NCBI GenBank assembly: GCA_910579585.1
Contig: CAJTVA010000004.1
Span: 2,330-66,329 of the forward strand
Reading direction: 5' to 3'
Source: an uncultured Christensenella sp.
GTDB lineage: Bacteria; Bacillota; Clostridia; Christensenellales; Borkfalkiaceae
DNA length: 64,000 bases
Each line of letters starts with the position of its first letter. The first letter of the stretch is position 1. Under the pieces are notes generated by a model that was given only the letters and a program-made list of their open reading frames with translations, had not been told where the DNA came from and searched no databases. Positions 6,917 to 44,973 of the stretch are shown here, one piece after another. The position numbers were made by a program, and so were the translations under genes.

Positions 6917-8143
6917 TTAAATTGCCCAGTTGCCGTCTTTAAAGACCTGCACCCGCTTACCGTCCTTGGTCACGCCGACAATCGACATATCCGCGTTGCC
7001 AATCATAAAGTCAACGTGTATCATCGAGCTGTTGACGCCCAATCTTTCACATTCTTCGACGGTATACTTTTCGTAGTTTTCAAGGCAGTTGTTGAAGCCC
7101 CTGCCGAGTGCCAAATGACAGCTCGCGTTCTCGTCGAAAAGCGTATTGTAAAAAAGTACGCCCGTATTGTTGATGGGTGAATCGTGTGCGATAAGCGCCA
7201 CCTCACCGAGGTAAGCAGCGCCCTCGTCCATAGAAATCATTTTTTCCAGAAGGTCCTGATTTTTCTCGGCGTAAACTTCAACCGCTTTACCGTTTTCAAA
7301 GCGTACCCAGAAATTTTCAATCAGCTTGCCCTGATAAGACAAGGGCTTCGTCGCAACAACTTTCCCTTCCGCCTTGCCGCGCAAAGGTGTCGTAAAAACC
7401 TCTTCGCTCGGAATATTGGGGTTATAGTAGATATTGCTGTCAAGCGTGTACTCGCCACCGCCGAGGAAAATTCCCTTTTCGTTTAAACCGACTGTAAAAT
7501 CGGTACCGTTCGCGCTCTTGTATTCGAGGCTTGCAAACTTGTAATCGTTCAAGAATTTGCAACGCTTCGCAAGGTTTTCGTTATGCTCTTTCCAAGCCTT
7601 TATGGGGTTGTCGTCCACGCGCGAAGTGTATAAAATGGCTTCCCAAAGCTTTTCTATTGCCTTCTTGTCAGAAAGCTCGGGGAAGACTTTCTTAGCCCAC
7701 TCTTTACCGGGCACTGCGGCAATACACCACTGATACTTGTTCTCCATCGCGTCGCGATAAGGTTTAATAATCGGGTAACGCGCCATACCCGCCTTTGCTA
7801 TCTTTTCGCTGTCGGTGCCGTTCAAGCCGTCGGGGTCGTCAGATTCGAGCCAAAGCTTGCACGCAAGCGTATCCACCTTTTCCTGTAACTCCGCCTTTTC
7901 CACGTCGGTTACTTCCGAAAGGGTCGCAAGGCTTCTGTAATTGTAGTTGAGCTTTGTCACGGGCATATACGACCAATTGACTTTGACGCGCTTAGCTCCC
8001 GCTTTATAGCACTCTTCAACTACCATAGCCACAAAATCTGGCTGGTCGAGTCCGCAGTCGATGAATACAAGCTGACCCTTTTTAACGTTCAAGCCGCACT
8101 TAACTATAAGTTTTGCGTATTTTTTCAATCTCGATTTCTGCAT
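6917..8143 (-). CDS. Aminopeptidase, M29 family (AmpS/PepS type)
   Basis: 408 aa. The N-terminus RLKKYAKLIVKCGLNVKKGQLVFI and the C-terminus HLALGRGF...IHVDFMIG are characteristic of thermophilic-metalloprotease M29 aminopeptidases. SD AAGGTGG. An extended -10 (TGCTATAAT) lies upstream. Confidence 0.85.
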   Translation of the reverse strand: MQKSRLKKYAKLIVKCGLNVKKGQLVFIDCGLDQPDFVAMVVEECYKAGAKRVKVNWSYMPVTKLNYNYRSLATLSEVTDVEKAELQEKVDTLACKLWLESDDPDGLNGTDSEKIAKAGMARYPIIKPYRDAMENKYQWCIAAVPGKEWAKKVFPELSDKKAIEKLWEAILYTSRVDDNPIKAWKEHNENLAKRCKFLNDYKFASLEYKSANGTDFTVGLNEKGIFLGGGEYTLDSNIYYNPNIPSEEVFTTPLRGKAEGKVVATKPLSYQGKLIENFWVRFENGKAVEVYAEKNQDLLEKMISMDEGAAYLGEVALIAHDSPINNTGVLFYNTLFDENASCHLALGRGFNNCLENYEKYTVEECERLGVNSSMIHVDFMIGNADMSIVGVTKDGKRVQVFKDGNWAI

Positions 8144-14571: not shown

Positions 14572-14600
14572 AAAAGGTGCGATATTTTATCGCACCTTTT
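14572..14600. terminator. Bidirectional terminator closing the radical SAM gene (+) and the 20-kb protease/Opp cluster (-)
   Basis: AAAAGGTGCGAT-atttt-ATCGCACCTTTT, a 12-bp stem with A and T runs on both sides. It overlaps the stop codon at 14600-14602. Confidence 0.85.
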
Positions 14601-14851
14601 TATTTCAGCCAGAAATATGCAAGCAAAAAGACAAACGAAAACATAAGCACGGAAATAATGATAAACGGAGCAATCGCCGCAAACGCGCCCCTTACCATAG
14701 CCCAATACTCTTTTCTTGAAACTTTTTGCCTGTTTTTGCGCGACTCGTCCTGCTTTTTTGCGTTGGGGTTATACCATTTAAAACCGTCAACGTTCATATC
14801 GGCGAAACTTGTCGTCGTATCAAGGTCGTCGTCAGGCTTTTTCTTTGCCAT
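14600..14851 (-). CDS. Small tail-anchored membrane protein (83 aa), last gene of the Opp cluster
   Basis: A charged N-terminal half (KKKPDDDLD...KKQDESRKNRQKVSRKEYW) is followed by a single C-terminal TM segment (GAFAAIAPFIIISVLMFSFVFLLAYFW). The start overlaps the oppF 3' end by 20 nt, and the terminator follows immediately. Confidence 0.6.
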   Translation of the reverse strand: MAKKKPDDDLDTTTSFADMNVDGFKWYNPNAKKQDESRKNRQKVSRKEYWAMVRGAFAAIAPFIIISVLMFSFVFLLAYFWLK

Positions 14852-15956
14852 CGCTCTCCTCTTTGTTCTTCTTTTTGAGCACCCTCATATCTTCCTTTGC
14901 AAGCGCTGTAATTCTTTCAAGTTCTTCGGCTTTCTTCAACTCTTCTTTGCAAGCAATATTCTCCTCGGGCGTGTTGTAAAGGTGACAGGCACAGAAATGC
15001 CCTTTTTCTACCTCTTTATAAATAGGTTTTACCTTTTCGCAAATATCCATGCAGTGCTCGCACCGAGTGTGGAACTTGCAGCCCTTGGGCGGGTTAACGG
15101 GCGACGGCAAGTCGCCCTTCAACAGAATTCTGTTCATCTTGACGTGCGGGTTAGGCACGGGCACCGCCGAGAAAAGCGCCTTTGTGTACGGGTGCAGAGT
15201 GTTTGAGAAAATCGACTCCTTAGTGCCGTACTCAACCATACTGCCGAGGTACATTACGCCGACTTCGTCCGAAATGTGCTTAACGACGGACAAATCGTGC
15301 GAAATGAACACGTACGTCAGGCCCAACTCTTTCTGCAATTCTTTAAGCATATTAATTATCTGCGCCTGAATGGAAACGTCAAGCGCGGAAACAGGCTCGT
15401 CGCATATAACGAGGTCGGGCTTTAACGCAAGCGCGCGGGCAATACAAATTCTTTGCCGCTGACCGCCCGAAAACTCATGCGGGTAACGCTCGTAATAGTG
15501 CGGCTGAAGTCCGCACATCTTCATAACGCTTAAAATGTAATCGTGATACTCTTCCTTGGGCACGATTTTGTGCTCGCGCACAGCCTCGCCGATAATCTCG
15601 CCGACGGTAAGTCTTGGCGAAAGGCTCGCGTAAGGGTCCTGGAAAATCATTTGCATATTCGGGCGGAGTTTGTTGAACTCGCGGTTCTTTATCTTTGAAA
15701 CTTCCTGCCCCTTGAACCAGATTTCCCCGCCCGTAACGTCGTAAAGACGCAGAACGGTTCTTCCCATAGTCGTCTTACCGCAACCGCTTTCGCCGACTAT
15801 ACCGAGGGTCTTGCCCTTTTCGATAGAGAACGTAACGCCGTCAACGGCTTTCAGATACTTGGTGGGTCTGCCGAAAAGCGTAGAGTCCACCACGAAATAC
15901 TGTTTTAAATCTTTAACTTCTAAAAGAGGTGCTTCGCTTACTTCGTTTTCAGCCAT
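14832..15956 (-). CDS. oppF: Oligopeptide ABC transporter ATP-binding protein OppF-type, with a C-terminal Cys cluster and a charged tail
   Basis: Walker A GESGCGKTT, signature FSGGQRQR, Walker B LVICDEPVSALD, H-loop ISHDL. The C-terminus has CKFHTRCEHCMDIC...CAC followed by about 45 aa of KE-rich tail. Confidence 0.9.
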   Translation of the reverse strand: MAENEVSEAPLLEVKDLKQYFVVDSTLFGRPTKYLKAVDGVTFSIEKGKTLGIVGESGCGKTTMGRTVLRLYDVTGGEIWFKGQEVSKIKNREFNKLRPNMQMIFQDPYASLSPRLTVGEIIGEAVREHKIVPKEEYHDYILSVMKMCGLQPHYYERYPHEFSGGQRQRICIARALALKPDLVICDEPVSALDVSIQAQIINMLKELQKELGLTYVFISHDLSVVKHISDEVGVMYLGSMVEYGTKESIFSNTLHPYTKALFSAVPVPNPHVKMNRILLKGDLPSPVNPPKGCKFHTRCEHCMDICEKVKPIYKEVEKGHFCACHLYNTPEENIACKEELKKAEELERITALAKEDMRVLKKKNKEESDGKEKA

Positions 15957-15957
15957 A

Positions 15958-17259
15958 TTAAACCTCCTTTCCGTTTTCTTTTGATTTATAAAGATAGCAC
16001 AAAACGCTGTGTGTAGGCGATACCTTTATAAGCTCGGGGTATTCCCCCGCGCACTCCGAACGGCAGGACTCGCACCTGTCGCGGAAGTAGCAATAGTCGG
16101 GCATATCAACAGGGTTGGGCACGAAACCGGGAATACAGTAAAGCGATTCGACTTCACCGTCAACGGTCGGTTTACTCTTCTGCAAGCCAATCGTGTACGG
16201 GTGCATAGGATGGTCGAAAATATCCTCCGCCGTGCCCATTTCTATTACTTTGCCAGCATACATAACGACAACGAAGTCCGCCATTTCCGCAACCACGCCC
16301 AAGTCGTGCGTGATAAGCATAATACTGCCGTTAATCTTCTGTTTGATTTCCTTTAATAAATCGAGAATCTGCGCCTGAATGGTAACGTCGAGCGCTGTAG
16401 TCGGCTCGTCAGCAATAATAAGGCGCGGGTTGCAAAGAAGCGCCATTGCAATCATAACCCTTTGGCGCATACCGCCCGATAGCTCGTGCGGGTATTTCTT
16501 ATAAACTCCCTCGGGGTCGGCCATACCGACAAGATTAAGCATTTCAAGACTTCTGGCTTTAGCGTTTTCCTTAGATATACCCTCAAGATGCAAAAGCGCA
16601 ACCTCGTCAAGCTGGTTTCCGACCGTGAACACGGGGTTAAGGGAAGTCATAGGCTCCTGAAAAATCATTGCGATTTCACTACCGCGGATTGTACGCATAG
16701 CATCGACTGGCATCTTTGCAATGTCAACAACGAGCTCTTCCCTCTCGTACATATTTCCGCCGAGCTCGTTTTTCTTTATAACGGGCTTGCCTTTTTTGTC
16801 GAGAACGGGCTCTTCGCCGTTCACACCCGTGCGGGTTTCGTAAACGGGAATTTTCCTCCCCTTTTCGTCACGCTTAAAGCTATGGCTTTTGAACCTTATA
16901 GAGCCGCTTACAATCTGCCCCGCGGGTCCTTGAACAAGTTGCATAGTCGAAAGCGAAGTTACGGACTTACCGCAACCGCTCTCGCCCACGACGCCGACCG
17001 TCGAGCCTTCGGGAATGGAGAACGACACTCCGTTTACCGCCTTAACGACGCCCGCGTCGGTGAAAAAAAAGGTGTGCAAATCGTCGAGTTCAAGAATGTT
17101 GGTCGGGTCCTTCATTTCCGTTACGAACTCTTCTTCCTTTATCTTTCTCTTCTTGCGTTTTTCGAAGTATTTCGTCTGCTTAGCGTTTTCCTTAGCTATG
17201 CGGCGGGACTCCGCGCCCGAGATATAATGCGATTTTTTTGAATTATTTTCTTCGGACAT
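15958..17259 (-). CDS. oppD: Oligopeptide ABC transporter ATP-binding protein OppD-type, with an N-terminal basic extension and an internal insertion
   Basis: Walker [11 protein letters not shown]-loop [14 protein letters not shown], signature LSGGMRQR, Walker [14 protein letters not shown]-loop ITHDL. There is a lysine-rich leader of about 52 aa, and an insertion of about 54 aa (aa 124-177) between Walker A and the Q-loop. Confidence 0.9.
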
Positions 17260-17263
17260 TTAT

Positions 17264-18328
17264 TTACCTCTTCATTTTCGGGTCAAATGCGTCCCTCAAA
17301 CCGTCGCCGACGAAGTTGAAAGCGAGAATTGCAAGCGTAATACATATGCCGGGCGGAACCCAGAAGTTCGGGAAGTTACTAAGCCTGATACTGTTTGAAG
17401 CCGAGTTTATCATTGTGCCCCAGGTTGCAGTCAAAGGCGGCGCACCGATACCGAGGAAGCCCAGCGTTGCTTCGGTCAGAATTATACTGCCGAGCCCGAG
17501 CGTCATCGAAACGATAAGTTGCGGCAATACATTCGGCAGAAGGTGCTTGAAAATTTTCCTCTTGACCGAAAGTCCCGAACACTTCGCGGCAAGCATAAAG
17601 TCCTGCTCTCTCAACGACAGTATCTGCCCGCGCACAAGCCGCGCGATTCCCGCCCAGCCTATCAGGGTCAGAATACCCATCATATAATATAGTCGGATAA
17701 TCGAATTAATTCCCGCAGCGTCGAACACCGTGGAAAAGATAAGCATAATCGGCAACGTCGGTATACAGTACAGTATATCTGTAAGACGCATAATAAAGTT
17801 ATCCACCCGCCCGCCGAAATATCCGGCAAGCCCGCCTAAAATTACGCCGATCAGCGTTTCCAACAGCACGACGACAAAGCCTATCGTCAAGGAAACCCTT
17901 CCGCCGTACATAAGGCGCGTAAATAAATCGTAACCGTTTTCGTCCGTGCCGAGCCAGTGCTCCGCCGACGGCGCGGCTTCACTGTTCCACTCGCTGGTAG
18001 AAATCGAAATGTCGTAGCCGATATGCACGTTTCCGTCAGCGTCGGTGTATCTTACTTCGCTGTAATTTACAATCGTCTTACCCGAAGTATCCCTCTGCGT
18101 TTCGCCCCAAGGCGATATAAGAGGACCGAAGAAAGAGATAACGAACAGCGCAACCAGTATGACAAGACCGACTATCGAAAGTTTAGAGCGGAAAAACCGT
18201 TTTGCAACGGTTCTGCCCGGCGAAAGGACTTTTACCCTGTCGCCAAGCACTTCACCGTGGAGGTCGTTGAATTTTTGGTCCGTGCCCGCGTCTGTTTTTT
18301 CGGTTTCGGGCATTTTTTCTTCTTCCAT
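17264..18328 (-). CDS. oppC: Oligopeptide ABC transporter permease OppC-type
   Basis: 354 aa. The BPD-transporter EAA-like region is AAKCSGLSVKRKIFKHLLPN. A strong SD (AAGGAGGG) is present, and there is an N-terminal cytoplasmic extension of about 45 aa. Confidence 0.9.
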   Translation of the reverse strand: MEEEKMPETEKTDAGTDQKFNDLHGEVLGDRVKVLSPGRTVAKRFFRSKLSIVGLVILVALFVISFFGPLISPWGETQRDTSGKTIVNYSEVRYTDADGNVHIGYDISISTSEWNSEAAPSAEHWLGTDENGYDLFTRLMYGGRVSLTIGFVVVLLETLIGVILGGLAGYFGGRVDNFIMRLTDILYCIPTLPIMLIFSTVFDAAGINSIIRLYYMMGILTLIGWAGIARLVRGQILSLREQDFMLAAKCSGLSVKRKIFKHLLPNVLPQLIVSMTLGLGSIILTEATLGFLGIGAPPLTATWGTMINSASNSIRLSNFPNFWVPPGICITLAILAFNFVGDGLRDAFDPKMKR

Positions 18329-18339
18329 TCTCTCCCTCC

Positions 18340-19338
18340 TTACTTTCCTAGTTTTACGCGAGGGTCTACAACTGCGTACATAATATCGGTCAGCAATATA
18401 CCGATTACGGTCAATACCGCAATGAACATATCGTATCCCATAATAAAGAATATATCGCCGTCTTTCGTCATCTTATAGGCAAGGTTACCTATACCGTCGA
18501 TTGCGAACACCTGTTCGATAATCATCGAACCGCCGAAAAGCGTCGGTAATATTCCCGAAAGCGTAGTTACAAGCGGAATAAGCGTGTTTCTGAAAACGTG
18601 CTTATAAACGACTTTGCCTTCCGAAAGCCCCTTTGCCCTTGCCGTGCGGATATAGTCGGCGTTCAGAACTTCCAAAGTGTTCGTTCGCGTATACCTCATC
18701 ATAGAGCCGATTGAAAGTATAGTCAGAACGAAAATCGGAAGAATAAGGTGCCAGACGTTATCCATAAACGCCATAAAGCCCGTATAGTTTGCGGTAGGCG
18801 TATTCAAACCGCCGTTAGGGAACCAGCCTAAATCTACCGAGAATATCTTTATAACTATACTTGCAAAGAAGAACGACGGAAACGATATGCCTATCATTGT
18901 AAGGACTGTTACCGTATAGTCCAGCTTTCCGTATTGGTTGCAGGCGCACTTGATGCCGAGGGGAATTGCAATTACTAGCTCTAAAACAAGCGCAATCAAA
19001 GAAATCGCGAACGATACGCCCATATTGTTGAAGATTTCTTCCCCGACCGGCTTACCGTCAAAGCTGGTGCCTAAATCTCCGGAAAAGAATGCGGTTATCC
19101 ACTTCCACCATCCGCCGACGATACCGCCGAACGAATTGTCGAGAAGATTATACCTTGCAAGAATCATATCGATCGTAGCCTGCGCCTGTTCTTCAGTAAC
19201 ACCGCTGTTCACCAAAGACTCAAACTTTCTGTTGATATAATCGGGGGGCATAACCCTGACGAGCGCGTAAAGAATTATCGATACGCCCAAAAGTATGAAC
19301 ACCGCCATCAGCAGCCTTTTTATTACGTATTTAACCAT
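18340..19338 (-). CDS. oppB: Oligopeptide ABC transporter permease OppB-type
   Basis: 332 aa. MVKYVIKRLLMAVFILLGVSIILYAL and YIRTARAKGLSEGKVVYKHVFRN are typical OppB/DppB motifs. Confidence 0.9.
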   Translation of the reverse strand: MVKYVIKRLLMAVFILLGVSIILYALVRVMPPDYINRKFESLVNSGVTEEQAQATIDMILARYNLLDNSFGGIVGGWWKWITAFFSGDLGTSFDGKPVGEEIFNNMGVSFAISLIALVLELVIAIPLGIKCACNQYGKLDYTVTVLTMIGISFPSFFFASIVIKIFSVDLGWFPNGGLNTPTANYTGFMAFMDNVWHLILPIFVLTILSIGSMMRYTRTNTLEVLNADYIRTARAKGLSEGKVVYKHVFRNTLIPLVTTLSGILPTLFGGSMIIEQVFAIDGIGNLAYKMTKDGDIFFIMGYDMFIAVLTVIGILLTDIMYAVVDPRVKLGK

Positions 19339-19365: not shown

Positions 19366-21963
19366 TTAATTATAATCAAGTTCCCAAATTTTGAAGAGAA
19401 GTCCTGCGTTAGCGCTGGGATTTTGATTGATTGAGTCAATTTTGATTACTTTGTTGTTGTAAACAGCCAAATCGTGTCTTTGATAGGTAGGAAGTTCAAC
19501 TGCAAGCTCCATTATCGCATTTAGCGCGTTAACGTAGTGTACGGTTCTGAACTCTTCGTTCACGTTCGACCTTGCAAGGTCAATCTCGGCGCTGAGGTAG
19601 GTCAAAAGCGCATTCTCTTCCGCATACTCCGACTGGTTGTTCATAATAGTTTCATAGCCCCAGTTCTTTGTGCTGGTCGCCTTACTGTCTTTATGATATA
19701 TCTGATACAAGTCGGGGTCGATACCCGTTGTCCAAGCTGCCGCCCAAACTTCGAGTTTGCCTGTAGCAAGCTTGATTAATGCGTTTCTGTCGTTCTTAAC
19801 GGTTATATCAAAACCTATCTTATTGAGGTCGTCCGCAGCGTCGACAAACATACCGTAAGCGGGGTGGTCAGCCGTTTCGCCCGCAATGGTAAACGTCAGT
19901 GTAAGCATTTTGCCGTTCTTGTAATACTTGCCGTCGGTCTTGGTATAGCCTGCACTCTCAACAAGACTTTCTATCACGCTGGTATCGGTTTGGTATCCAT
20001 ACCTAATTCCCGACGTCTTACTGTTCGGCATAAGTTCCTTAAATCCGGAAACGTAAGGGGTTCTCAAAGCACCGGTTTTGTCGTTAGTATTAAGGAAGTT
20101 GGTCTTGGAAGTAGGCCTGTAAATCTCTGAAGAATACTGTTCGGTATAATAGTTTTTGATTATTGCAACGCTGGGGTTCATTGCAAGCATAATCGCAAGT
20201 CTTACTTCCCTGTCTGGAACGAACGTGGGGTTGATACCGACGTAACCGAAGCCGTTTGCGTCGTAGTTTTTATTGTTGAGGTGTGAAATATCAGTAATTG
20301 CTTCGATATTCTTGGGCGTACAGTTGGGGGTACCGTAGTCGACGACTTCGTTTATAAGAGAGTTGATAATCTGGTCGTCCGTCGTGTAAACGTATCTTAA
20401 ATACTTTATCTTAGCGTTATCGATACCGTCGCCGAGCGTAGTGAAATTAGTATTGCGCTCATACTCAACTATACTGTTATTGAAGAATACCGCACCCTCC
20501 CTCATCTTGTACGCGCCTGCTCCGACGGGCGCTTCGGTTTTTGACGCCGCGCCTATAACGTTCTGCATAAACGCGTCGTTACTGAAACGGACGCCGAACC
20601 TGTTGTCATAGGTAGAATCGTTCCAATGCTCGTTGCAGCGTGCAACGTAGTCGATACCGTCGTCGCCGACGCCCGAATAATAGTGCATAGGCGCTACGGT
20701 AAACGCAAAGTTATAAATAGCCGCAGGGTCTACGCCGTTAATCGTAATAGAAAGAACGTCGTGTTCGGAACCAAGGTTTTTACCGTTGAAGGTCGTAGCC
20801 TTTTCGGTCTTGATGCCGGAGACGGAGTTTACTACAAGCGACGAGGAGCCGCCGTTTTCGTTTGACATAGCTTCCCTTATGAACTGCTGCATAAGTTCGT
20901 TGCCGTAGGAGCTTGCTAAAAGTTCACTAAGGGCCCCTGTAACGTTGCCGTCGTATAGCCCTTTATTTTCCCCGCTTGTTATTTCATATAAATACTTGGA
21001 AAAGACAATATCCATAGCGGCGTCCTTTTCCGAAGTACCGTTTGACGTCGCGTCGTTCATAGCATTAACGATATCTGCGTCAAACGGGCGGGCGTCAGGG
21101 TGCGCGGGGTCAAGCACGGTTAAATACTTACCGTCAACCTTTATTCTTTCAAGGTTGTTGTTTGCATTGTATTTGTACTGATATCCGACAAGCCCCTCAT
21201 TGAAAAGGAAAACTTCCCAGTCTTTCGTGAAGTTGTACTCTTCGTAAGAATTAATGGTACCGACAACGCTGTTCCAGTCGGATTCAAGTCCTTCCTTAAA
21301 AATCTTTGCAAGGGCTTGAATATCGTTTTTGACAGTGTCAAAGCTCGTACCGTTGCCCTGCGAACCTTTGTCGTAGTCGCGGATAGATTCTATCCTATCA
21401 AGCGCTTCGCCCCTGTACTCTTCTTCTATATCAAGGTCGGAATCGTCAGGTAAATTTTGCTGAGCCCTGTAACTTTTAAGCCCTCTTATATCCGTCGAGT
21501 AAATCGTAGTGGAACCGGTATATACGGGGTCAAGATAGACGTAAAGGTTGAAAAGCACGTCCCTAATGTCCATATCGTAACCCATACTGTCCTTAACGCC
21601 TTTCTTTATGACAAATTTGTAAGTAGTATGGTTGACCGTGCCCGACGTCCATTCCTGGCTGTCATCCTGGCTGGCGTACTGCGTTATCGAGTAATCGAGA
21701 GCCATAGTTTCCTGGTCGTTGCCGCACACGATGTTGCCGTTAGCGTCGGCGGTAAGCATAGAAATCTGAGTCTTTCCTATTACTTCGCCGTCGTTGCCAG
21801 AGGTATAGAAGAACGGGTTAAAGTTCTTATCCAAAGCGCCGATTGCAAGTGCAACGGGACGGGTTTCCGTATCATAAACGCTTGTATTCTGACAACCCGT
21901 AACCGCTAAAAGCATAGTTGCACAGGTTGCGCCAATCACTAAATTCCTTATGGCTTTTTTCAT
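19366..21963 (-). CDS. oppA: Peptide-binding lipoprotein, SBP family 5 (OppA-like), oversized at 865 aa
   Basis: The lipobox is MLLAVTGCQ. Family-5 core segments are recognisable (GFGYVGINPTFVPDREVRLAIMLAMNPSVAI, and the C-terminal LPTYQRHDLAVYNNKV). That is about 300 aa more than typical OppA/DppA proteins. Confidence 0.8.
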   Translation of the reverse strand: MKKAIRNLVIGATCATMLLAVTGCQNTSVYDTETRPVALAIGALDKNFNPFFYTSGNDGEVIGKTQISMLTADANGNIVCGNDQETMALDYSITQYASQDDSQEWTSGTVNHTTYKFVIKKGVKDSMGYDMDIRDVLFNLYVYLDPVYTGSTTIYSTDIRGLKSYRAQQNLPDDSDLDIEEEYRGEALDRIESIRDYDKGSQGNGTSFDTVKNDIQALAKIFKEGLESDWNSVVGTINSYEEYNFTKDWEVFLFNEGLVGYQYKYNANNNLERIKVDGKYLTVLDPAHPDARPFDADIVNAMNDATSNGTSEKDAAMDIVFSKYLYEITSGENKGLYDGNVTGALSELLASSYGNELMQQFIREAMSNENGGSSSLVVNSVSGIKTEKATTFNGKNLGSEHDVLSITINGVDPAAIYNFAFTVAPMHYYSGVGDDGIDYVARCNEHWNDSTYDNRFGVRFSNDAFMQNVIGAASKTEAPVGAGAYKMREGAVFFNNSIVEYERNTNFTTLGDGIDNAKIKYLRYVYTTDDQIINSLINEVVDYGTPNCTPKNIEAITDISHLNNKNYDANGFGYVGINPTFVPDREVRLAIMLAMNPSVAIIKNYYTEQYSSEIYRPTSKTNFLNTNDKTGALRTPYVSGFKELMPNSKTSGIRYGYQTDTSVIESLVESAGYTKTDGKYYKNGKMLTLTFTIAGETADHPAYGMFVDAADDLNKIGFDITVKNDRNALIKLATGKLEVWAAAWTTGIDPDLYQIYHKDSKATSTKNWGYETIMNNQSEYAEENALLTYLSAEIDLARSNVNEEFRTVHYVNALNAIMELAVELPTYQRHDLAVYNNKVIKIDSINQNPSANAGLLFKIWELDYN

Positions 21964-23378
21964 TATAATTCCTCCGTTAAATTGTTATTTACCGTAAATG
22001 TTTCCGTTGCTCCGCTAGGCTTTTTAATCGTGCAAGTCGCGTGCGGAACGTTTATTTCTTTATACGTTGCGTCGTCCTTATCGCCGAATAACCAGCTGTT
22101 TTCCGTAGTATTGGTTACAAGGCTGTTTGTTTCGTGCGATAACGTAATTTCAAGACTGCCACTTATGCTTACGTTTTCGAAAGTTGCTCCGTCCCGTATT
22201 GAATAGGCAATGAAATTTACTGACGCGTCAACCGTGGTAACGCCACCGCCGCCGACGGTAAATCTCACAACCATATCTTCAAAAGAAACGTTTTTGAATT
22301 TTGCGCCGCTTCTTATTTCACCGAACATTGCAACCCTGCCGCCGTTGCCGAGTGAACTTGAATTGGTAACGACGAAGTTACTAATCGTGCGCCCGTCTTT
22401 TCCGCCGTAAATCTCGCCCGAGAACGCCGCAAGATTACTTATCTGCAAGCCGTCGCCGTCAATGTCGTTCATAAGATAATAACTGTTACCGGTGTTTCGC
22501 GTGAACAACATATGCACGTCTTGGGGCGAGCGAAGCAACGTATAGTTACCTTTAAGCACCTTAACATATAAAATTATGTCATGATATTTTCCGTCTTCGT
22601 CAGGTTCGGGATAGCGGATAGGCCAACCCGTGAAAGGCGTAAACGCCATATCATTGAAATCTTTTTCCTCGTCGTCGCTTGCAAACAGTCCGGTGACGGT
22701 GCAGTTTTCAATCGAAATAATGTTCGTAATATCGCTGAGCCCCGTATCCCTTTTGGGGATATTGTAACTTAGCCCGTCGATAAATTCGCCCTCTTCGATA
22801 GTTTTCTCGACTTCGTTGCCGCCGTCGTCTTTGACTTTAACTATGAGGTCGAAAGGTTCGTCCTCGTACAAAAGCTTTAACTTTAATTTTACGTCCTCGT
22901 AGAACCCGCCGCAGATATAAACGTGCTCGTCCTTTTCGAGGGGTTTGGAAAAGTCGAATAAGGTATCGCTCTGCTTCATTCCTTTGGAGGCGTCGTAGCC
23001 GTCCTCCTCGGAATAAACCGTCCCGTCCGCATACATAGGCTTTCCGTCCTGAAGCTCGACGAGGTGCCAACCCGAGAAGTTGTATCCCGCGTTCAAATTC
23101 AGCGCCGAACTTCCGCTTGTCGTCGGGGTCTCTCCGTCAAGGTTAAGGGGAATTTCCCCCTCCTGATAATAAATATTCTTAACGTAAAGACCGTCGTTAA
23201 AAGCTCCGCCGTCGCCGCCGTCAAGGTTCAGAAAGTAAGTCACCCGCGCCGTAAGATTATATTTATCTTTGATTTGGTCGACCGTCATACCGAAATTGCA
23301 ACCCGCCGCAAGCGAAGCGCAAATTACGGCTATCAGTCCGAGAACGGTTATTAGCAGTATTTTTAGCTTTTTTGTCAT
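21963..23378 (-). CDS. Surface lipoprotein (471 aa) with a Listeria-Bacteroides-type repeat and a GLUG-like beta-helical module. It is a paralogue of the 1308-aa lipoprotein.
   Basis: The lipobox is SLAAGCNFG. GYNFSGW is the B-repeat hallmark. The segment YYLMNDIDGDG...FSGEIYGGKDGRTISNFVVT...VAMFGEI parallels YKLTRDIDCGG...FAGNFNGDNHTISNYTIT...VGLFGCV in ORF 30847-34773. An ATGA overlap links it to the protease stop, and a TAATG overlap links it to the oppA start. Confidence 0.7.
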   Translation of the reverse strand: MTKKLKILLITVLGLIAVICASLAAGCNFGMTVDQIKDKYNLTARVTYFLNLDGGDGGAFNDGLYVKNIYYQEGEIPLNLDGETPTTSGSSALNLNAGYNFSGWHLVELQDGKPMYADGTVYSEEDGYDASKGMKQSDTLFDFSKPLEKDEHVYICGGFYEDVKLKLKLLYEDEPFDLIVKVKDDGGNEVEKTIEEGEFIDGLSYNIPKRDTGLSDITNIISIENCTVTGLFASDDEEKDFNDMAFTPFTGWPIRYPEPDEDGKYHDIILYVKVLKGNYTLLRSPQDVHMLFTRNTGNSYYLMNDIDGDGLQISNLAAFSGEIYGGKDGRTISNFVVTNSSSLGNGGRVAMFGEIRSGAKFKNVSFEDMVVRFTVGGGGVTTVDASVNFIAYSIRDGATFENVSISGSLEITLSHETNSLVTNTTENSWLFGDKDDATYKEINVPHATCTIKKPSGATETFTVNNNLTEEL

Positions 23379-26300
23379 CTGATGCCTCTGTTTTTCCTAC
23401 GAATTACGGTAGACAACGCAAACATTGCGCCAAGCGCCGTAAATGTGAGCAATACGGTACCCGTTATCGAGGTAGTACTTCCGCAACCGCCGCCGCAGCC
23501 GCCCTGTTCGCCGGGGTTCTCGCCCTCTTCGGACACGGTAATGCCGACGCGCACGGTTCTGCCCTCGTAAGTGAGGGTTATAACGTTGTCAAGTCTTGTT
23601 AAAGGTTCGTGCAAATCATAGGTAACTTTACTCATATCGGCGTATTCGGTCGAATAATCGTCGTAAATCACTATGACCTGCAAGCCCGTAATATCGAAAT
23701 ATTCACCGACCCTGTAAACCGACTTAAAGTCGCCTGTATAGGAAAGTCTGGAAACGGAAACCGAAATTCCGTAAGCCTCTTTAATGGGGCGAAGCGCCGT
23801 CTCTATAGCGTTGAACTTTTCGATAAGCGAGTTATCTACGAAAGCAAGCTGGGTAGAATCGGAAGCGAATACATTGTAATATTCGTGAGCCCTCTTCACG
23901 CTTTCCGAGAACGCTTCGACGTGCTCTTTGCTCACCTCGGGCAATTTCCAGCCCGAAATTTCCTGAGCGGTGCTGAACTCTGTTACAAGCGATATAAACG
24001 AATTTGTCGCTTCGCTCATAGCAATACCGGTCGTTACGCAGTTGCCGAAGAAATTCGAGAAAACATAATTGTCGTAACCCGTGCCGTTTTCGGGGCGGTA
24101 AATCGTCAGTGTCGTAGGAGTCAACGCTGTTGAATGCCCCGCGTAGAAAATGAAATCGCCTTCGAAGTTCGAGTAGTAATAACCTCTGTACGATGTGTCG
24201 CCGTCCATAATTTCGTCAATCAGTTCGGAATGCTCGGTTTCGAGTGCGGGCGCCGTTACGCCCTTGAACTCATACACGGTAATGCCGCTCTGATAGAAAG
24301 CCGCTGCGCCGATAGTCTTTAATCCGTAGGGAAGAACTACTTTATTAACCCTGCCCGTTAGTCCTTGGAACGCAGCACCGCCGATTTTGACGGTATCTTC
24401 GAGGACATTATATACCCTTTCTCCGTCAGTTGCAACAACCGACTTAGCCGAGGGGAACGCAACGAGAACGACTTTGTTATCAGTGCCGTTTATAACGTCG
24501 CTGACATTTTTATAAAGAACGCCGTCGTCTACGAAAAAGACCTTGTTACCGCTTGCTACGGTAAAGCCCGTAAGCCTTGACGAAGAAGCAAACGCGCCCT
24601 CGCCAATCGATATAAGCGTTGCGGGAATTTCAACGGAAGTTTCCCTGCCGCCAGCAAACGCAAACGCGCCTACAGTTTCCGCAACGGGCATATTTATGGA
24701 AGAATAAGCCTTCTTGCCGCTGTTGATAATGAACGCGCCCTCGCCGATATTCTTTGCCGCCGTAAGTTCGAGTGCGGCAAGCGATACGCAGTCCGCAAAC
24801 GAATAATCGCCGATAACGACAAGCTTGTTAAGTCCGGTAACGGTTGCAAGCGCACCGCAACCTGCGAATGAAGCATTGCCCGTTTCGGTTGCGTTCTTAA
24901 GGTCGAACGAAGTCAACGCCGCGCAGTTATAGAACGCGTAATCACCGATTTTTTCAACCGCGCCACCTATCGAAACAGACTTTAAGTTCGCCCTGTCGGC
25001 TGCCCTGTTGGCCGCGAACGTGTAGTTACCCGTCGTGTTGGAATCAGCGCCGAACGTAACGGTTTCAAGTTTGGGCGTATTCCAGAACGTGTATTCGCCG
25101 AGTGCGGTAAAGCCGTCCGAATTGACAAGCGAAGGAAGCGTTACCGTCTGCAACGAGGTGCAACCTTCGAACGTTCTGTCGCCGAGCTTTACGATATTTG
25201 CCGCAAGCGCGATTTCGTTAAGCGCCGTACAACCGCTGAATACGCGGTCGCCGAATTCCGCTTTGTTTGTAGGGTTAAAGTTGAACGTTTCCAATGCCGT
25301 ATTTCCCGCAAAGGCGTAATCGCCCACGGATGTTACGGAATTAGGCAGGCTCAACGAAGTGAGTTTTGTATTGTAGAATGCGTAAGCGGGAATAGAAGTT
25401 ACATTCGCGCTTATAGTTACCGAGCCGAGCGAGCTGTTCGCAAACGCGCCCTCCCCTATATCCTTGACGGACGAGGGAATCGTTACGCTTGTAACTCCGC
25501 TTGACGCAAATGCGTACGGCGCTATTTTTACTACCGTTGAGGGAACGGTATAACTACCCGTACCCGTAAACAGCAACAGCGTTTTGTTATCCGAGCTCAA
25601 AATAGCGTTACTTGATACATTATAACCGTTAGTGCCGCTAAATGTCAAGCTCGTGCCGGAGAATGCGCCCGCGCCAATCGTTTCAAGCCCCTTAGGAACG
25701 GTAAAACTTGAAATCTTCGTGTTAGCAAACGCTCTTTCGCCGATACTTTTTACCGTGCAGGTTCCGAAATTAACCGAAGTCAGGTTCGAACACCCCGCGA
25801 AAGCGCTTGCACCGATTGTAAATACAAGGTTGCCCGCCGTGGTCGGGTCGATAAACTTAATGCTTTGTAAACCGGTACAGTTTTCAAACGCGCCTGCGCC
25901 GACACTCGGTGTTTTGATTTCAATGCTCGTAAGTTTGTTGCAAGCTGAGTATTCCGTCTTGTGCGTAACCCACGCATTAGTGGTAGAATCGTAAACCTCG
26001 TAATTATATACAAGGTCGGAGAACATTCCTGCGCCTATTACCGAATATCTGCCGGTTGTAATACTGCTTAGCTGTTCGCATCCGCTGAACACGTTTGAGC
26101 CTGCAGAATGCAACTCCGAGACGTCGATTGAAGTCAGCGATTTGCAGCCGATAAACGCTCTGTCGTGCATAGTGCCTATCGCCGTGGACTTTACAATATT
26201 TTTAAGGCTTTCGCAGTCCTTGAACGCTTCCCTTGCAACCGTAATTACTTTAATATTGCTTAAGTCGAGAATTTCAAGCGAGGTACAGCCCTCAAACGCA

Positions 26301-29300
26301 CCCCTATCGATAAGCGTCATTTCGGAAGTCGGAACGAAGTCGGATGCAGTAAAATCAACCTCTTTGTCGTCAACGAAGTATACGCCTTTCAGGTTAGTAC
26401 AGCCGTAGAACGCCCTTTTGTCGATTGAAGTTACGGTTTTGGGAATTATAACTTTCGTTATCTTCTTGTTATTTTTGAACGCTTCTTCCCCGATTGACAT
26501 AATATTTTTGCCCTCGGGAATTACCACGACGCCCTCTTCTCCGTCAATAGTTTCACCGTCACCGTGATAATGCGTCAACGACATATTGCTGATTGTGAAC
26601 GGGTCGGCAACCGTAAAGATAAAGTTCTTCGTATACCTTATTCCGCCTGCAAGTATCGTTGCGGAAACGGTCGAAACACCCTTGTTTACCGTATGAACCA
26701 AGCCCTTGTCTGACACTGTAACGGCAGAGCCCGTCACCGACCAGGTAATCTGCACGTCGTCCATAGGATAATACCACGGGTCGGGCACGATATTAAGCTG
26801 AATGTCTTCGCCTGCATTCACTGTAGCCGAACCCGATTTTGTAAGCGAGTCGTTGCTGGTTTTAATTACCCCGAAATCGAACGAAGGGTTGTTTAAAGGC
26901 AATACATTATCCGTAACGGTAACGTAGACGGTTTCGAAGAAGCCTTTACCGTTGCTTATGGTCACGTACCTCTCTCTTCCGTTCGTTGATTTTAGACCTA
27001 CAACTTCTCCGTTCTTTACCGCTATAAATTCATTCTGGGTAGCCGTTCCGCCGACAGTCATAATGAAGTTGGAAATGTCTGCGCTTCCCTCGTATTCCAG
27101 GGTGTATTTATGCGCTTCGTTAATATCTATGGTAATGTGTCTTTCGCTGTCGGGAACCGTGAATTCATCGGGCAATACGCTTCTGTTAAGAGCGGTCGTA
27201 ACATCGCTTACCGTGCCGTTAACAGCGCCGAGATAATAACTGGAATGGTTCATCGCATAGTCGTCAATCTGAACATAGAGATTGTTCTTATATTCGTCCC
27301 AAATGTCCGTGACCTCGATAGAAACCGTCGTTACGCCGTTTCTGTTCGCATTCCTTATAGGCGTAACATACTCGGTAGCAAGGTTAAGGTTTACTTCGCC
27401 GTCCTTGTCGTCGCGGTAGCACAAAAGCACCGCCTGCGCGTAGTGATTATCGTAGACGTCAAGGTCGAGGTAAATTCTCTGTTTTTCCTTATTGCCGTCT
27501 TTATAGTTATAATATCTGAGCCTTGCGTCCTGCAATACGGGCGCTTCGTAGTCCACGTAGAAGTCGAACGAGAAAGTATTTTCGGGCTTGACTTCGGAAT
27601 CGTTGTTAAATAAGAACTCGAAATCGAACCTGTATTTTCCGTTTGCGATAAGCCCGAGCTCATCGGCGGAAAGCCTAAGTTCAACATATGCGGGACGCGC
27701 CGATCCGCCGTTTGCGTACGCTTTACTGATTCTGGTGACGTTGCCCTCTTTTACAAGTTCACCCGTAACCTCGTCGTAAAGCTTGTAATTTACGCGCCGC
27801 GCGTTTCTCAAAAGTCCCGCGTACACGCATCTGAATTCGTAGGTCGTAAGATAATTGCCTATTCCTTCCTCGTTGTAGTACTCGTTAAACCTTGAAATCG
27901 AGTTGTGCTCCATCGTGGGGTAAATCTGCACATTCGAGGGGTCGGGGTCCTGCGTATACAGGTAAGAACCGATAGGAATAACGAAATCGTCGTTCCAGTA
28001 CGACGCGTAAGGCTGCGTAGCCCAAACGGTTTCGGAAATCTTGTCTTCTTCGTCAATAGAAGTGTCCTGCTGAATTTGTGCAAGCTCGTAAGCGTCCAAA
28101 TCAAGCATAGGCGCCTGCTCCCAATCGCCGAAGAAGCCGATAAACGGAAGCGTCAGGTCGCACTGCAACTCGCCGTTCAGGTCTGCGTCCGAAACAAGCT
28201 TTACGAAGCCCTCAACGTACATACCGTTCTTGAAGTTGTCGTTTAAATATTGCTTTTCCTCAGCCGTAAGCCTTAAAGTAACCGTTAAGTTAACCGAGCC
28301 GCCTGCCGGAACCGTAACCTTAGAAACGGTATTACCGTCGATTGAGAACGTACCCTTATCGCTGAACATATGCGCCTGCTCTGCAACCGCTATACCGTCG
28401 CTTGCTATAGTTTCGGTCATAAACAGCGCTTCGGGCGTAAACGTCAAAGATTTGTTATCAAAGTTGTTTACGTGGAAGTTGAACGTGTAGACGCCGCTTT
28501 TTTCTTTGTCGTCGCCTAGTTCGATTTTAGGTCTGCCGTCCTTTTCCGTGTAATAATAGCTGTCGCCCTGTTGTGTGGAAATATATGCGCGCGTATCTAT
28601 TATATTGTCAAGGTTAGCAAGCCCCGCGCCCTGCTTACGCGGCGAATATGCAAGCGCTTGCTCGTCGAAAGCCGTGGTTGCGGTGCTCATTATAAGCTGG
28701 TTAGTAAGCTGAATTATTTCGCTGGGTTTATAGTTCTGCGCGATAGAAAGATTTTTTACGTAATTTCTTACAAGCGCCGTAAGACCCGCCATATTGGGGC
28801 AAGCCATCGAAGTACCGCTCTGAACTGCGTAGCCGCCGGGTACGGTGGAGTTAATTTCGCCGCCGTGCGCCGTAATTTCGGGCTTAAGCTTCAAATCGGG
28901 CGTAGGCCCCCAAGACGAGAACGAGCTCATAAAGGGACCGGCTTTAAGATTTCTGTTGATAGTTATAGTTCCAACATAGCCGGTTGCAAGCTCGACGAGT
29001 TTGTCGCCCGCGTCTTTTGTTATCGAAACGGCAGGGATAAAGTCGGATTCAGCCAAATCGCCGAGGGTCATTCTGATAGTGCCGGGAACGTTGTTATAAA
29101 CGATTACCGCAATCGCGCCGTTCCTCTTTGCAAGCTCGACTTTCTGCTGGAAAGTATTGCCGCCACGCTGAATAAGCGCAATTCTGCCCCTGACAAGATT
29201 TCTTATATTTCCGTAATAATTGGTCGATTGACCCGTACCGACAACAACGTACTCGAAAGATTTTACGTCGTCGCTTTCGTCTTCAGGGTCGTCCTCACCG

Positions 29301-43596: not shown

Positions 43597-44973
43597 TTAA
43601 GAATTCTTTTTCTTTACGACGTTGCCGCCTGTTAAAAGTATCATTTTGACGGCTTCGATCGAGAAGCTGTCGGCAATGACCGTAAGCTTTTTATCGAGAG
43701 TGCCGCGGGCAAGCACCTTAATATACGTTGCCTTGCGGTTGATTGCGGGAATACGCTTTTTCATCTCTTCCAACGTAGCCGTTTCGCCTTTTTCGAAGCA
43801 CTTACTTAACGTGTCGATATTGACTATGTCCGACTTGGTTTTGTCAGAAAATTCTTCTGTTTCCTCCACAAGTGCGACTGCAACATCGTCCTGCATAAGT
43901 TCGTCCACTTCGTTCGCCAAAACGCAATCTCTGGGCAGGAACACGTCTCCGCTTTGCGCGTCCTCTTCGGTAAGCTCTTTAATAAGTCCGCGGTCAACGA
44001 GGGGCTGGATTTCTTCGTAAGGGTACTTTTCTGCCCAATTGCATACTTCGGGTTCGGGCAATTGCTCACGGTCGCCCATTACCGTTGCGATAAGCTCTTT
44101 TGAGTATTTGACGCGCCTGTCGTTCTTTATGCGGTACAGGCAAGGGGTCTTTTCATAGGTTGCTATTTCGGACATATCGTCCACAATATACTTGCTTTCC
44201 GCGTAATCTTTAGCATCAAGCGCAAGGAAAAGACCCAGACACTTGCCCCTCACGCAAAGCTTTGCATAGGTTGTCCGACCTGAATAGAAAGTTTCGCCTT
44301 TCCAACTCATACGGGCTTTTACGCCTTTATATGAAAGCAATTCGTTCTTTATCTCCGAATAATAGTTTTTAACCACGTCGGATGACTGAATGATTTTTGC
44401 GGTGAAGCTTTTATTGTACTTTATAATTATGTAGCGTACGTGACCGTCTATCCTTGCGACTTTTCTGATTTTTTCCTCTTCTTCCGTTTCCTCTTTGTCG
44501 TCGTCTTTATCGTCGGAATCGTCTTCCTCACTGACCGGGGTCAAATTTTCGGGTTCAGGTTCAGGCTCAGGCTCCGACTGAACGGGCTCTTCGGGCTCGG
44601 GTTCAACCACAGGCTCGGATTCGGAGATAGGCGCGGAAACTTCTTCAGACTCGGGCACTTCATCAAACACAGGCTTTGCTTCCAACTGAACAGGTTCGTC
44701 AAGCTCAGGCTCAGATTCGGACTGAACGGACTCTTCGGGTGCGGGCTCTACAGCTTCAACGGGTTGCTCGGGTGCGGGCGCTTCAACCGGTTCTTGTTGC
44801 GGTTGCGGGGGTTGAGCAGTTAATTCGCTCTTCGTCGATTTACGCTTTTTGCCGGCTCTTACTCCCAAAACTATTGCAAGCACTACAATCAGCAATACTA
44901 CCGCGCCTGCGGCCATTCCGGCGTATAAGAGGGTTTCGCCCTCTAAGCCGAAAAGTAAAAATAATTTCAACAT
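43597..44973 (-). CDS. Membrane-anchored protein with an acidic Pro/Glu-rich linker and a C-terminal ribosomal protein uL15-like domain
   Basis: 458 aa. An N-terminal TM helix (AGMAAGAVVLLIVVLAIVLGV) is followed by about 125 aa of low-complexity sequence such as PEPEEPVQSEPEPEPEPEN and DDSDDKDDDKEETEEEE. The C-terminus IVNIDTLSKCFEKGETATLEEM...IKVLARGTLDKKLTVIADSFSIEAVKMILLTGGNVV resembles the uL15 C-terminus (NLDKL...[33 protein letters not shown]). Confidence 0.65.
   Translation of the reverse strand: MLKLFLLFGLEGETLLYAGMAAGAVVLLIVVLAIVLGVRAGKKRKSTKSELTAQPPQPQQEPVEAPAPEQPVEAVEPAPEESVQSESEPELDEPVQLEAKPVFDEVPESEEVSAPISESEPVVEPEPEEPVQSEPEPEPEPENLTPVSEEDDSDDKDDDKEETEEEEKIRKVARIDGHVRYIIIKYNKSFTAKIIQSSDVVKNYYSEIKNELLSYKGVKARMSWKGETFYSGRTTYAKLCVRGKCLGLFLALDAKDYAESKYIVDDMSEIATYEKTPCLYRIKNDRRVKYSKELIATVMGDREQLPEPEVCNWAEKYPYEEIQPLVDRGLIKELTEEDAQSGDVFLPRDCVLANEVDELMQDDVAVALVEETEEFSDKTKSDIVNIDTLSKCFEKGETATLEEMKKRIPAINRKATYIKVLARGTLDKKLTVIADSFSIEAVKMILLTGGNVVKKKNS

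Follow-up and report, generated by a model that had tools for sequence, protein, structure and literature searches.

We analysed a 64,000-nucleotide (nt) stretch of DNA from an uncultured Christensenella sp. (assembly GCA_910579585.1, contig CAJTVA010000004.1), referred to here as the window. Its minus strand carries a gene for a very large protein in which a subtilase-type (S8) protease head and a long array of leucine-rich repeats (LRRs) lie in a single polypeptide. This S8-LRR protease gene stands in a run of closely spaced genes that also encode lipoproteins and all components of an oligopeptide-type (Opp) importer. A reading of the same DNA made from its letters alone (the sequence-only reading) had described the fusion; the operon, the C-terminal membrane anchor and the prodomain reported below were absent from it. 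From the first gene of the cluster to its probable end, the features are as follows, with positions counted along the window.

30847-34773, minus strand: 1308-amino-acid (aa) lipoprotein with a GLUG motif (lipobox GFAFGC; Pfam Glug, 28.2 bits), 47 nt before the protease gene
23375-30799, minus strand: S8-LRR protease gene, 2474 aa, a single uninterrupted open reading frame (ORF) with an ATG start
21963-23378, minus strand: partner lipoprotein, 471 aa (lipobox LAAGC); its ATG overlaps the protease stop codon (ATGA)
19366-21963, minus strand: long OppA-like substrate-binding lipoprotein, 865 aa (SBP_bac_5, 81.7 bits; lipobox AVTGC; TAATG junction and GGAGG ribosome-binding site)
18340-19338, minus strand: OppB permease (BPD_transp_1; Opp4B, 222 bits)
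17264-18328, minus strand: OppC permease (OppC_N and BPD_transp_1; Opp4C, 333.7 bits)
15958-17259, minus strand: OppD ATPase (ABC_tran and oligo_HPY)
14832-15956, minus strand: OppF ATPase (ABC_tran and oligo_HPY)
14572-14600, minus strand: terminator-like hairpin with a 13-bp stem after OppF, the probable end of the operon

The eight genes share one strand and are separated by successive gaps of 47, -4, -1, 27, 11, 4 and 1 nt. The ribosome-binding site of the protease gene is AGAGGA, 7-8 nt 5' of the ATG, and the frame is intact on the minus strand over its entire length. All five components of an Opp system are present: a family-5 binding protein, two permeases, one of which carries OppC_N, and two ATPases with oligo_HPY. 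The binding protein is 865 aa long, against the usual ~550. Positions 15-62 of the SBP_bac_5 profile fall on its aa 111-163 and positions 109-363 on aa 473-761, which indicates an insertion of ~300 aa, and this extra region is kept in all related loci (853-1003 aa). The hairpin at 14572-14600 lies between the convergent OppF and radical-SAM genes and is likely a bidirectional terminator.

Domain architecture of the S8-LRR protease

The protease was divided into domains by Pfam profiles, by sequence searches against the PDB, and by AlphaFold2 (AF2) models of its two halves that were compared with solved structures using Foldseek. From the N-terminus to the C-terminus the following features were recognised.

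30707-30799, minus strand: signal peptide-like N-terminus, aa 1-31, with a basic N-region and then hydrophobic aa 11-31
30287-30457, minus strand: Inhibitor_I9-type prodomain, aa 115-171 (Pfam PF05922; scanned alone, the segment scored 22.0 bits against a cutoff of 21.2; also found in homologue P0100)
28622-30145, minus strand: subtilase catalytic domain, aa 219-726 (Pfam Peptidase_S8 PF00082, E 3.5e-41), with D228, H303, N426 and S664
28997-29227, minus strand: PA domain inside the catalytic domain, aa 525-601 (Pfam PA, E 1.2e-16)
28142-28522, minus strand: first Fn3-like domain, fn3_5, aa 760-886 (Pfam, E 6e-11; aligns in sequence with C5a peptidase)
26885-28141, minus strand: family-specific beta-sandwich tail, aa 887-1305 (all-beta in the AF2 model; Foldseek matches to ScpA/ScpB)
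26522-26884, minus strand: Ig-like (Big_2-like) domain before the LRRs, aa 1306-1426 (Big_2 sub-threshold at aa 1348-1381, above threshold in homologues; beta-sandwich in the model)
24230-26521, minus strand: BspA-type LRR_5 solenoid of ~30 units and ~770 residues, aa 1427-2190 (Pfam LRR_5 PF13306, PDB sequence matches, model and Foldseek)
23774-24229, minus strand: solenoid cap and helical bundle, aa 2191-2342 (helices at aa 2263-2342 in the model; a hidden Markov model (HMM) of the region detected it in 131 members)
23531-23755, minus strand: membrane-proximal Ig-like (Big_3-like) domain, aa 2349-2423 (Big_3 sub-threshold at aa 2359-2422, above threshold in homologues; small beta-sandwich in the model)
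23471-23530, minus strand: disordered Gly/Cys linker with GGCGGGCGS, aa 2424-2443 (from sequence; pLDDT <50)
23378-23470, minus strand: C-terminal transmembrane (TM) helix and basic tail RRKNRGIR, aa 2444-2474 (from sequence, homologues and model)

The Peptidase_S8 profile scored 141.9 bits against a cutoff of 21.8 and the PA profile 61 bits against 23.9; fn3_5 and LRR_5 likewise exceeded their curated cutoffs. The catalytic triad named by the sequence-only reading was exact to the residue and in S8 order, D228 in VIDTG (aa 226-230), H303 in HGTHVAG (aa 303-309) and S664 in SGTSMA (aa 661-666), and the PA insertion and Fn3-like region that it had placed between His and Ser and behind the catalytic domain were both recovered there. 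The oxyanion-hole Asn is N426 (in AASND), and the complete D/H/N/S tetrad was invariant in 81 of 81 sequences. The proposed kinship with lactocepin and C5a peptidase was borne out on two levels. In sequence, aa 201-907 matched C5a peptidases, SpyCEP and other cell-envelope proteinases in the PDB (entries 7edd, 6vjb, 5xyr, 1xf1 and 3eif) with E values of 2e-70 to 1e-54, and the matches of the protease head in the PDB stopped at aa 907. In structure, the AF2 model of aa 190-1389 (pLDDT 80, pTM 0.69) found ScpB/ScpA as its top Foldseek matches (E ~1e-54, TM-score 0.62 normalised to the target), followed by SpyCEP. The alignment ran over ~1080 columns, which indicates that the streptococcal-type Fn3-like tail is present here too. 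The middle region, aa 908-1400, matched only 190 representatives among 1.84 billion (1.84e9); where these were full-length they were virtually all 2300-2900 aa long with the match at the same position, so that this region occurs only within the giant architecture.

The C-terminal half is dominated by the repeats. LRR_5 was detected in 7 stretches (397.2 bits against a cutoff of 27.7, E 1.3e-120), and a strict form of the repeat motif found 19 units between aa 1436 and 2163 at spacings that are multiples of ~23 aa, from which we count ~30 units. The solenoid matched 4fs7, 4gt6, 4h09 and PcpA in the PDB by sequence. In the AF2 model of aa 1290-2474 (pLDDT 87, the solenoid mostly >90) it runs continuously to aa ~2190 with a few beta-hairpin excursions, and Foldseek again returned 4gt6 (E 3.5e-13), 4fs7, 4h09 and PcpA. 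Its best structural matches are LRR_5 surface proteins of Faecalibacterium, Bacteroides and Eubacterium together with pneumococcal PcpA. The BspA-type region that the sequence-only reading had drawn at aa 1400-2190 (nt 24230-26602) thus stands, as do its two Ig-like modules, which are sub-threshold in the window protein, pass in homologues and fold as beta-sandwiches in the model. Pfam, PDB matches, models and Foldseek agree that an S8 protease and an LRR_5 solenoid share one polypeptide.

The protein ends in a membrane anchor. The AF2 model puts the last helix, which is a TM helix, at aa 2450-2471 with RRKNRGIR behind it. A C-terminal TM helix with a basic cluster is also found in most homologues, and some have a long acidic cytoplasmic tail. 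An LPXTG motif was absent from the window protein, as had been noted, and from all 120 homologues and all 70 complete locus ORFs that were scanned, which rules out LPXTG/sortase anchoring. A Gly-Cys motif (GGCGGGCGS, GC.GC or GC[KG]S) precedes the anchor helix in 68 of 120 homologues, including all of the closest ones. It is not invariant in the family: in many members the Cys is missing, and the TM helix is plain and leads into a long acidic tail in the cytoplasm. We treated the helix as a plain membrane anchor.

A three-part tail of Gly/Cys motif, hydrophobic helix and basic cluster bears a weak resemblance to the MYXO-CTERM tails of myxosortase/CPBP systems. The C-termini of myxosortase-dependent proteins gave weak matches (E 0.006-0.06, far below cutoffs), and the sorting-domain HMM TIGR03901 scored 7.2 bits against a cutoff of 20. 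Membership in MYXO-CTERM or another curated C-terminal sorting domain was rejected, all matches being sub-threshold. The described systems belong to Myxococcota and other Gram-negative groups, and the MYXO-CTERM paper (Haft) makes no mention of Clostridia or Firmicutes. No second ORF with a Gly/Cys-type tail was found in the window, one doubtful case was seen in a related locus (L021), and there was no CPBP protease among the scanned window ORFs. That the conserved motif might mark a new Cys-dependent signal for C-terminal processing or lipidation in Clostridia is a secondary possibility.

Conservation of the protease and its linkage to the Opp genes

The protease sequence was 100% identical to that of one protein cluster (P0001) and one locus (L001), and the DNA of the window was 100% identical to contig CAQTYU010000002.1, from a mouse-gut metagenome-assembled genome (MAG) labelled Candidatus Borkfalkiaceae. 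Altogether, 3 contigs and 21 member sequences carried the protease sequence unchanged. Among 5.8 billion proteins searched, at least 120 protein clusters matched it with 43-100% identity and ~100% query coverage; they have lengths of 2420-2960 aa and the identical set of Pfam domains. Where these homologues bear a database name it is 'leucine-rich repeat protein', and once 'lactocepin'. Relatives of protease aa 1-1400 are encoded in 80 species-level genomes or loci, and across these a single ORF encodes S8 core, middle region and LRRs.

These data bear directly on the authenticity of the fusion. The sequence-only reading had named, as what might refute it, an artefact that joins two genes, such as a frameshift or a collapsed repeat; a chimeric contig could likewise merge a protease gene with an LRR gene. 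The DNA does come from a MAG contig, and repeat-rich genes misassemble easily. However, the protease gene has no tandem repeat at the DNA level, so that repeat collapse is not an issue. The sequence recurs identically on the 3 contigs and in the 21 member sequences; a collinear architecture of similar length is found in the 120 or more clusters, in the 80 species-level loci and in further metagenome loci, which are independent assemblies; and the AF2 models of both halves are confident through the junction region. With no DNA tandem repeats and the architecture kept in independent assemblies, we regard the artefact as effectively refuted. On the evidence of these sequences, the full-length S8-LRR protein is a real and intact member of a conserved orthologous family of gut Clostridia MAGs. 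The description of the fusion as unusual consequently holds in comparison with characterised proteases of this class and does not hold among gut Clostridia MAGs. Antisense to the catalytic region of the gene lies a 617-aa ORF (28571-30424, plus strand), which is probably a non-coding shadow ORF.

The linkage between the protease and the Opp genes is conserved and survives REARRANGEMENT. Among the loci selected by their protease we evaluated those with enough flanking DNA. In 63 of 63, the LRRs lay within the protease ORF and the long OppA and OppB genes followed; OppC also followed in 61. A Coproplasma homologue with 44% identity showed the identical gene order by independent gene calls. The reverse question was put by aligning the long OppA proteins and scanning metagenome contigs with alignment-derived patterns, which succeeded where a metagenome scan with a single OppA sequence had found no relatives. 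Of the evaluable loci selected in this way by OppA, 43 of 46 had an adjoining S8-LRR gene, directly upstream in 24 and directly downstream of OppF on the same strand in 19. The second arrangement, lipoprotein-OppA-OppBCDF-S8-LRR, was seen in L010, L099, L103, L105, L107, L110, L115, L123, L126, L127, L135, L137, L140, L141 and others. Two gene orders with identical partners speak for functional coupling and not merely inherited synteny. The partner lipoprotein lay immediately upstream of OppA in 48 of 53 OppA-selected loci. The GLUG lipoprotein was directly upstream of the protease only in the 11 closest loci and in the Coproplasma locus (L081).

The lipoprotein provided a second line of evidence in the form of natural gene fusions. 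A lipoprotein of 420-580 aa lies between protease and OppA in 59 of 69 loci. The other 10 loci, like 12 database proteins, have a protease ORF of 2754-3016 aa, and a profile built from the 59 lipoproteins matched the extra C-terminal part of these ORFs with E values of 1e-42 to 1e-184, giving 22 lipoprotein fusions in all:

Fusion loci: L017, L026, L042, L050, L051, L055, L067, L072, L076, L078, the lipoprotein part being the C-terminal ~250-440 aa of the S8-LRR ORF
Fusion database proteins: P0037, P0038, P0039, P0043, P0044, P0051, P0053, P0058, P0065, P0067, P0075, P0093

In four of the fusion loci only the first ~250 positions of the lipoprotein profile are present. At the junction, the TM helix and basic cluster of the protease are followed by a charged linker of 30-100 aa, a second hydrophobic helix and the lipoprotein module. 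The second helix is the former signal peptide of the lipoprotein, with its Cys sometimes retained. Such an out-in-out hairpin is what would be expected if protease and lipoprotein are both extracellular and act together, and the two helices support an out-to-in topology of the predicted protease anchor.

In the lipoprotein family, Flg_new repeats were detected in 9 of 31 members and Peptidase_M26_N, the non-catalytic N-terminal region of M26 IgA1 proteases, in 2 of 31; the window lipoprotein itself had no Pfam match. The family profile matched only an InlB B-repeat among PDB sequences, marginally (E 0.05). A weak local match between the partner lipoprotein and the upstream Glug lipoprotein (E 0.028) was not taken as paralogy.

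The taxonomic breadth of the family (Lachnospiraceae, Oscillospiraceae, Ruminococcus and others) was taken from record titles and was treated cautiously. In 47 'distant' loci (among L012-L080) a conserved Cys-rich membrane protein of ~490 aa (…CAPGINCYSCPGA…) is encoded ~1 kb upstream of the S8-LRR gene, transcribed divergently in 44 of the 47 across an intergenic region of ~1 kb. One upstream neighbour common to loci with titles as different as Agathobacter, Roseburia, Faecousia, Ruminococcus and Oscillospiraceae suggests that these are closer kin than the titles imply or mislabelled MAGs, or else that the region is mobile, and the true taxonomic range may thus be narrower than the titles.

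Proposed function and competing explanations

We propose that the protein is a membrane-tethered cell-envelope proteinase (CEP) that produces oligopeptides for a dedicated Opp importer, and we put the probability of this reading at roughly 60%. The conserved module with a lipoprotein and an Opp importer is what points to nutritional proteolysis. The protein would be exported and its prodomain removed. Its C-terminus would hold it at the cytoplasmic membrane, with the catalytic head at the far end of a long and fairly rigid arm, from where the head, if its activity is broad, would cleave extracellular proteins into oligopeptides. The co-encoded OppA-like lipoprotein of 865 aa would capture these, and OppBCDF, whose specificity would accordingly be for peptides, would take them into the cell. 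The 471-aa lipoprotein would work with the protease at its membrane-proximal end, possibly in a physical complex. An M29 (thermophilic-type) aminopeptidase gene lies ~7 kb beyond the opp genes (6917-8143, minus strand), and it is plausible that its product carries out the intracellular step for imported peptides.

Several observations weigh against this proposal. The best NCBIfam matches of the transporter are the oligopeptide models Opp4A/B/C, and all of them fall below the equivalog cutoff (Opp4C 333.7 bits against 350, Opp4B 222 against 450, and Opp4A 50, a partial match, against 650). The OppA-like protein is very divergent; besides its ~300-aa insertion, it had no match in a PDB sequence search at E <= 0.001, and transporters with SBP_bac_5 proteins may also carry nickel, opines or muropeptides. 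A sigma-70 consensus scan of the coding strand 5' of the cluster found no convincing promoter. In 3 of the 46 OppA-selected loci (L121, L139 and L155) the lipoprotein-Opp core is present with no protease within the visible flanks. Across 31 members, the lipoprotein family showed no peptidyl-prolyl isomerase (PPIase), enzyme or other recognisable functional domain. Every member of the protease family comes from a MAG or metagenome, and among solved structures its nearest relatives are ScpA and SpyCEP, virulence proteases of narrow specificity rather than nutritional enzymes.

In a different explanation, the LRR arm would serve as a BspA-like adhesin through which the cell or the enzyme attaches to a ligand, either of the host or particulate (mucus, epithelium, food particles, other microbes). 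This ligand would then be the main target of the protease, which might for example cleave immune or mucosal proteins of the host in the way of ScpA and SpyCEP, and the Opp linkage would be secondary. LRR_5/BspA-type repeats are adhesion modules of oral and gut organisms. In structure the solenoid comes closest to LRR surface proteins from gut bacteria and to PcpA of pneumococci, C5a peptidase and SpyCEP are the nearest solved proteases, and every member was sampled from an animal or human gut; adhesion is moreover compatible with nutritional proteolysis, since the two are not mutually exclusive. However, the arm is internal, with the catalytic head on one side and the membrane anchor on the other, and does not lie at a distal tip. 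Its length is kept to 837±22 aa in 131 members of 43-100% identity, a spread of about one repeat, unlike the usual copy-number variation of adhesin repeat arrays, and the constant partners in the gene neighbourhood are a peptide importer and a lipoprotein rather than adhesion or virulence functions. We consider this explanation unlikely. Because of its head-to-anchor position, its constrained length and its location in the place of the B, H and W domains of PrtP-type enzymes (PMC10535647), we favour a spacer or scaffold role for the arm, which is at least as likely as that of a host adhesin; the arm may possibly also bind substrate or a partner.

We also weighed a role in processing, with surface or signalling molecules of the cell itself as substrates. 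Such an enzyme would mature the neighbouring lipoproteins or OppA, or would make or break down signalling peptides for import by Opp, as in quorum-sensing systems. Opp systems do import signalling peptides in many Firmicutes, and an enzyme paired with its substrate or its chaperone would fit the tight translational coupling to the lipoprotein and the natural fusions with it. Yet no RRNPP-type regulator, peptide-precursor gene or two-component system was present among the scanned ORFs of the operon and flanking window or in the annotated Coproplasma locus, the ORFs of the other loci having been compared with the proteins of the module alone. The size of 2474 aa, the PA domain and the long Fn3 tail are features typical of CEPs that act on bulk substrates, and the fusions keep both modules intact with no obvious cleavage logic. 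We regard a role in self-processing or with signalling peptides as very unlikely.

If the cell-envelope proteinase reading is taken one step further, the CEP on its LRR stalk, the lipoprotein and the OppA lengthened by ~300 aa might form a single complex at the surface in which peptides released by proteolysis are directly captured and imported. The cluster would then be an undescribed, self-contained protein-utilisation module of uncultured gut Clostridia, with the protease as its signature enzyme. The analogy is with Sus systems and polysaccharide utilisation loci, in which glycan breakdown is coupled to uptake, the coupling proposed here being between proteolysis and import. We put this extension forward tentatively, as an idea that is rather more likely to be wrong than right.

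Relation to known proteases and LRR proteins

The CEPs of lactic acid bacteria (PrtP/lactocepin, PrtB, PrtH and PrtS) are built from a prodomain, an S8 domain with PA insert, an Fn3-like tail, a helical domain, a spacer and an anchor, and the comparative study that describes this layout names LPXTG or SlpA-type anchors and nowhere mentions an LRR or TM anchor (PMC10535647). The window protein shares the structural hallmarks of the class, an S8 domain with PA insert, an Fn3 tail and a prodomain, and it also has a helical bundle and a linker before its anchor. Two marks of CEP membership are missing: an LPXTG or SlpA-type anchor, and a sufficient score for a curated family. The CEP-type NCBIfam model SGO_0316_fam gave 279.4 bits against a cutoff of 1400 and covered aa 114-906 only.

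In lactic acid bacteria, proteolysis proceeds from the CEP through Opp to intracellular peptidases (PMC3587842, PMC10535647). The pathway proposed here matches this order, and in both cases an accessory lipoprotein gene adjoins the protease gene, that of PrtM in lactococci. PrtM is a PPIase-type lipoprotein, whereas the partner lipoprotein here has Flg_new and M26_N-like features instead; its identification as a PrtM-like maturase was rejected, there being no PPIase signal. As far as we know, the CEP and opp genes of lactic acid bacteria do not form one conserved operon, in contrast to the near-universal linkage seen here.

With the streptococcal enzymes ScpA/ScpB and SpyCEP/ScpC (PDB 3eif, 1xf1, 8bty, 5xyr, 6vjb, 7edd) the window protein shares an S8 domain with PA insert, an Fn3-like tail, a prodomain and surface attachment, at a sequence identity of only ~20%. 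It differs from them in its length of 2474 aa, its TM anchor, its LRR_5 arm, its partner lipoprotein and its linkage to Opp. The streptococcal enzymes are 1100-1650 aa long and are sortase-anchored through LPXTG. To our knowledge they have no LRR solenoid and are not encoded in an opp operon. With the BspA-type LRR_5 proteins (Tannerella BspA, Treponema LrrA, and the structures 4gt6, 4fs7, 4h09 and PcpA 4cp6) it shares the repeat family, the fold and a cell-surface location in gut or oral organisms. Those are stand-alone LRR proteins or adhesins with ~400 aa per solved domain, whereas here ~30 units form a continuous arm inside a protease.

A literature search found no paper on an S8-LRR_5 fusion or on a protease-opp operon in gut Clostridia. 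The architecture, the anchor, the partner lipoprotein and the coupling to Opp thus appear undescribed, the family itself being already in the databases under a generic name. Characterised CEPs come almost all from lactic acid bacteria and pathogenic streptococci, and how uncultured gut Clostridia obtain amino acids from dietary or host protein is poorly understood. The S8-LRR family offers a concrete candidate, encoded in a conserved module of seven or eight genes in which the natural fusions predict both topology and partnership. Because the databases use the label 'leucine-rich repeat protein', functional profiles of gut metagenomes probably underestimate proteolytic capacity. The family would further represent a way of displaying a CEP that does not use sortase, through a C-terminal TM helix that is sometimes preceded by a Cys motif, and an instance of BspA-type LRRs serving as the internal arm of an enzyme.

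Elsewhere in the window (43597-44973, minus strand), a 458-aa ORF provides an odd setting for a ribosomal-protein domain, since it combines an N-terminal TM helix and a long acidic, Pro/Glu-rich low-complexity region with a C-terminal match to Ribosomal_L27A/L15 (aa 383-453, E 1.2e-9).

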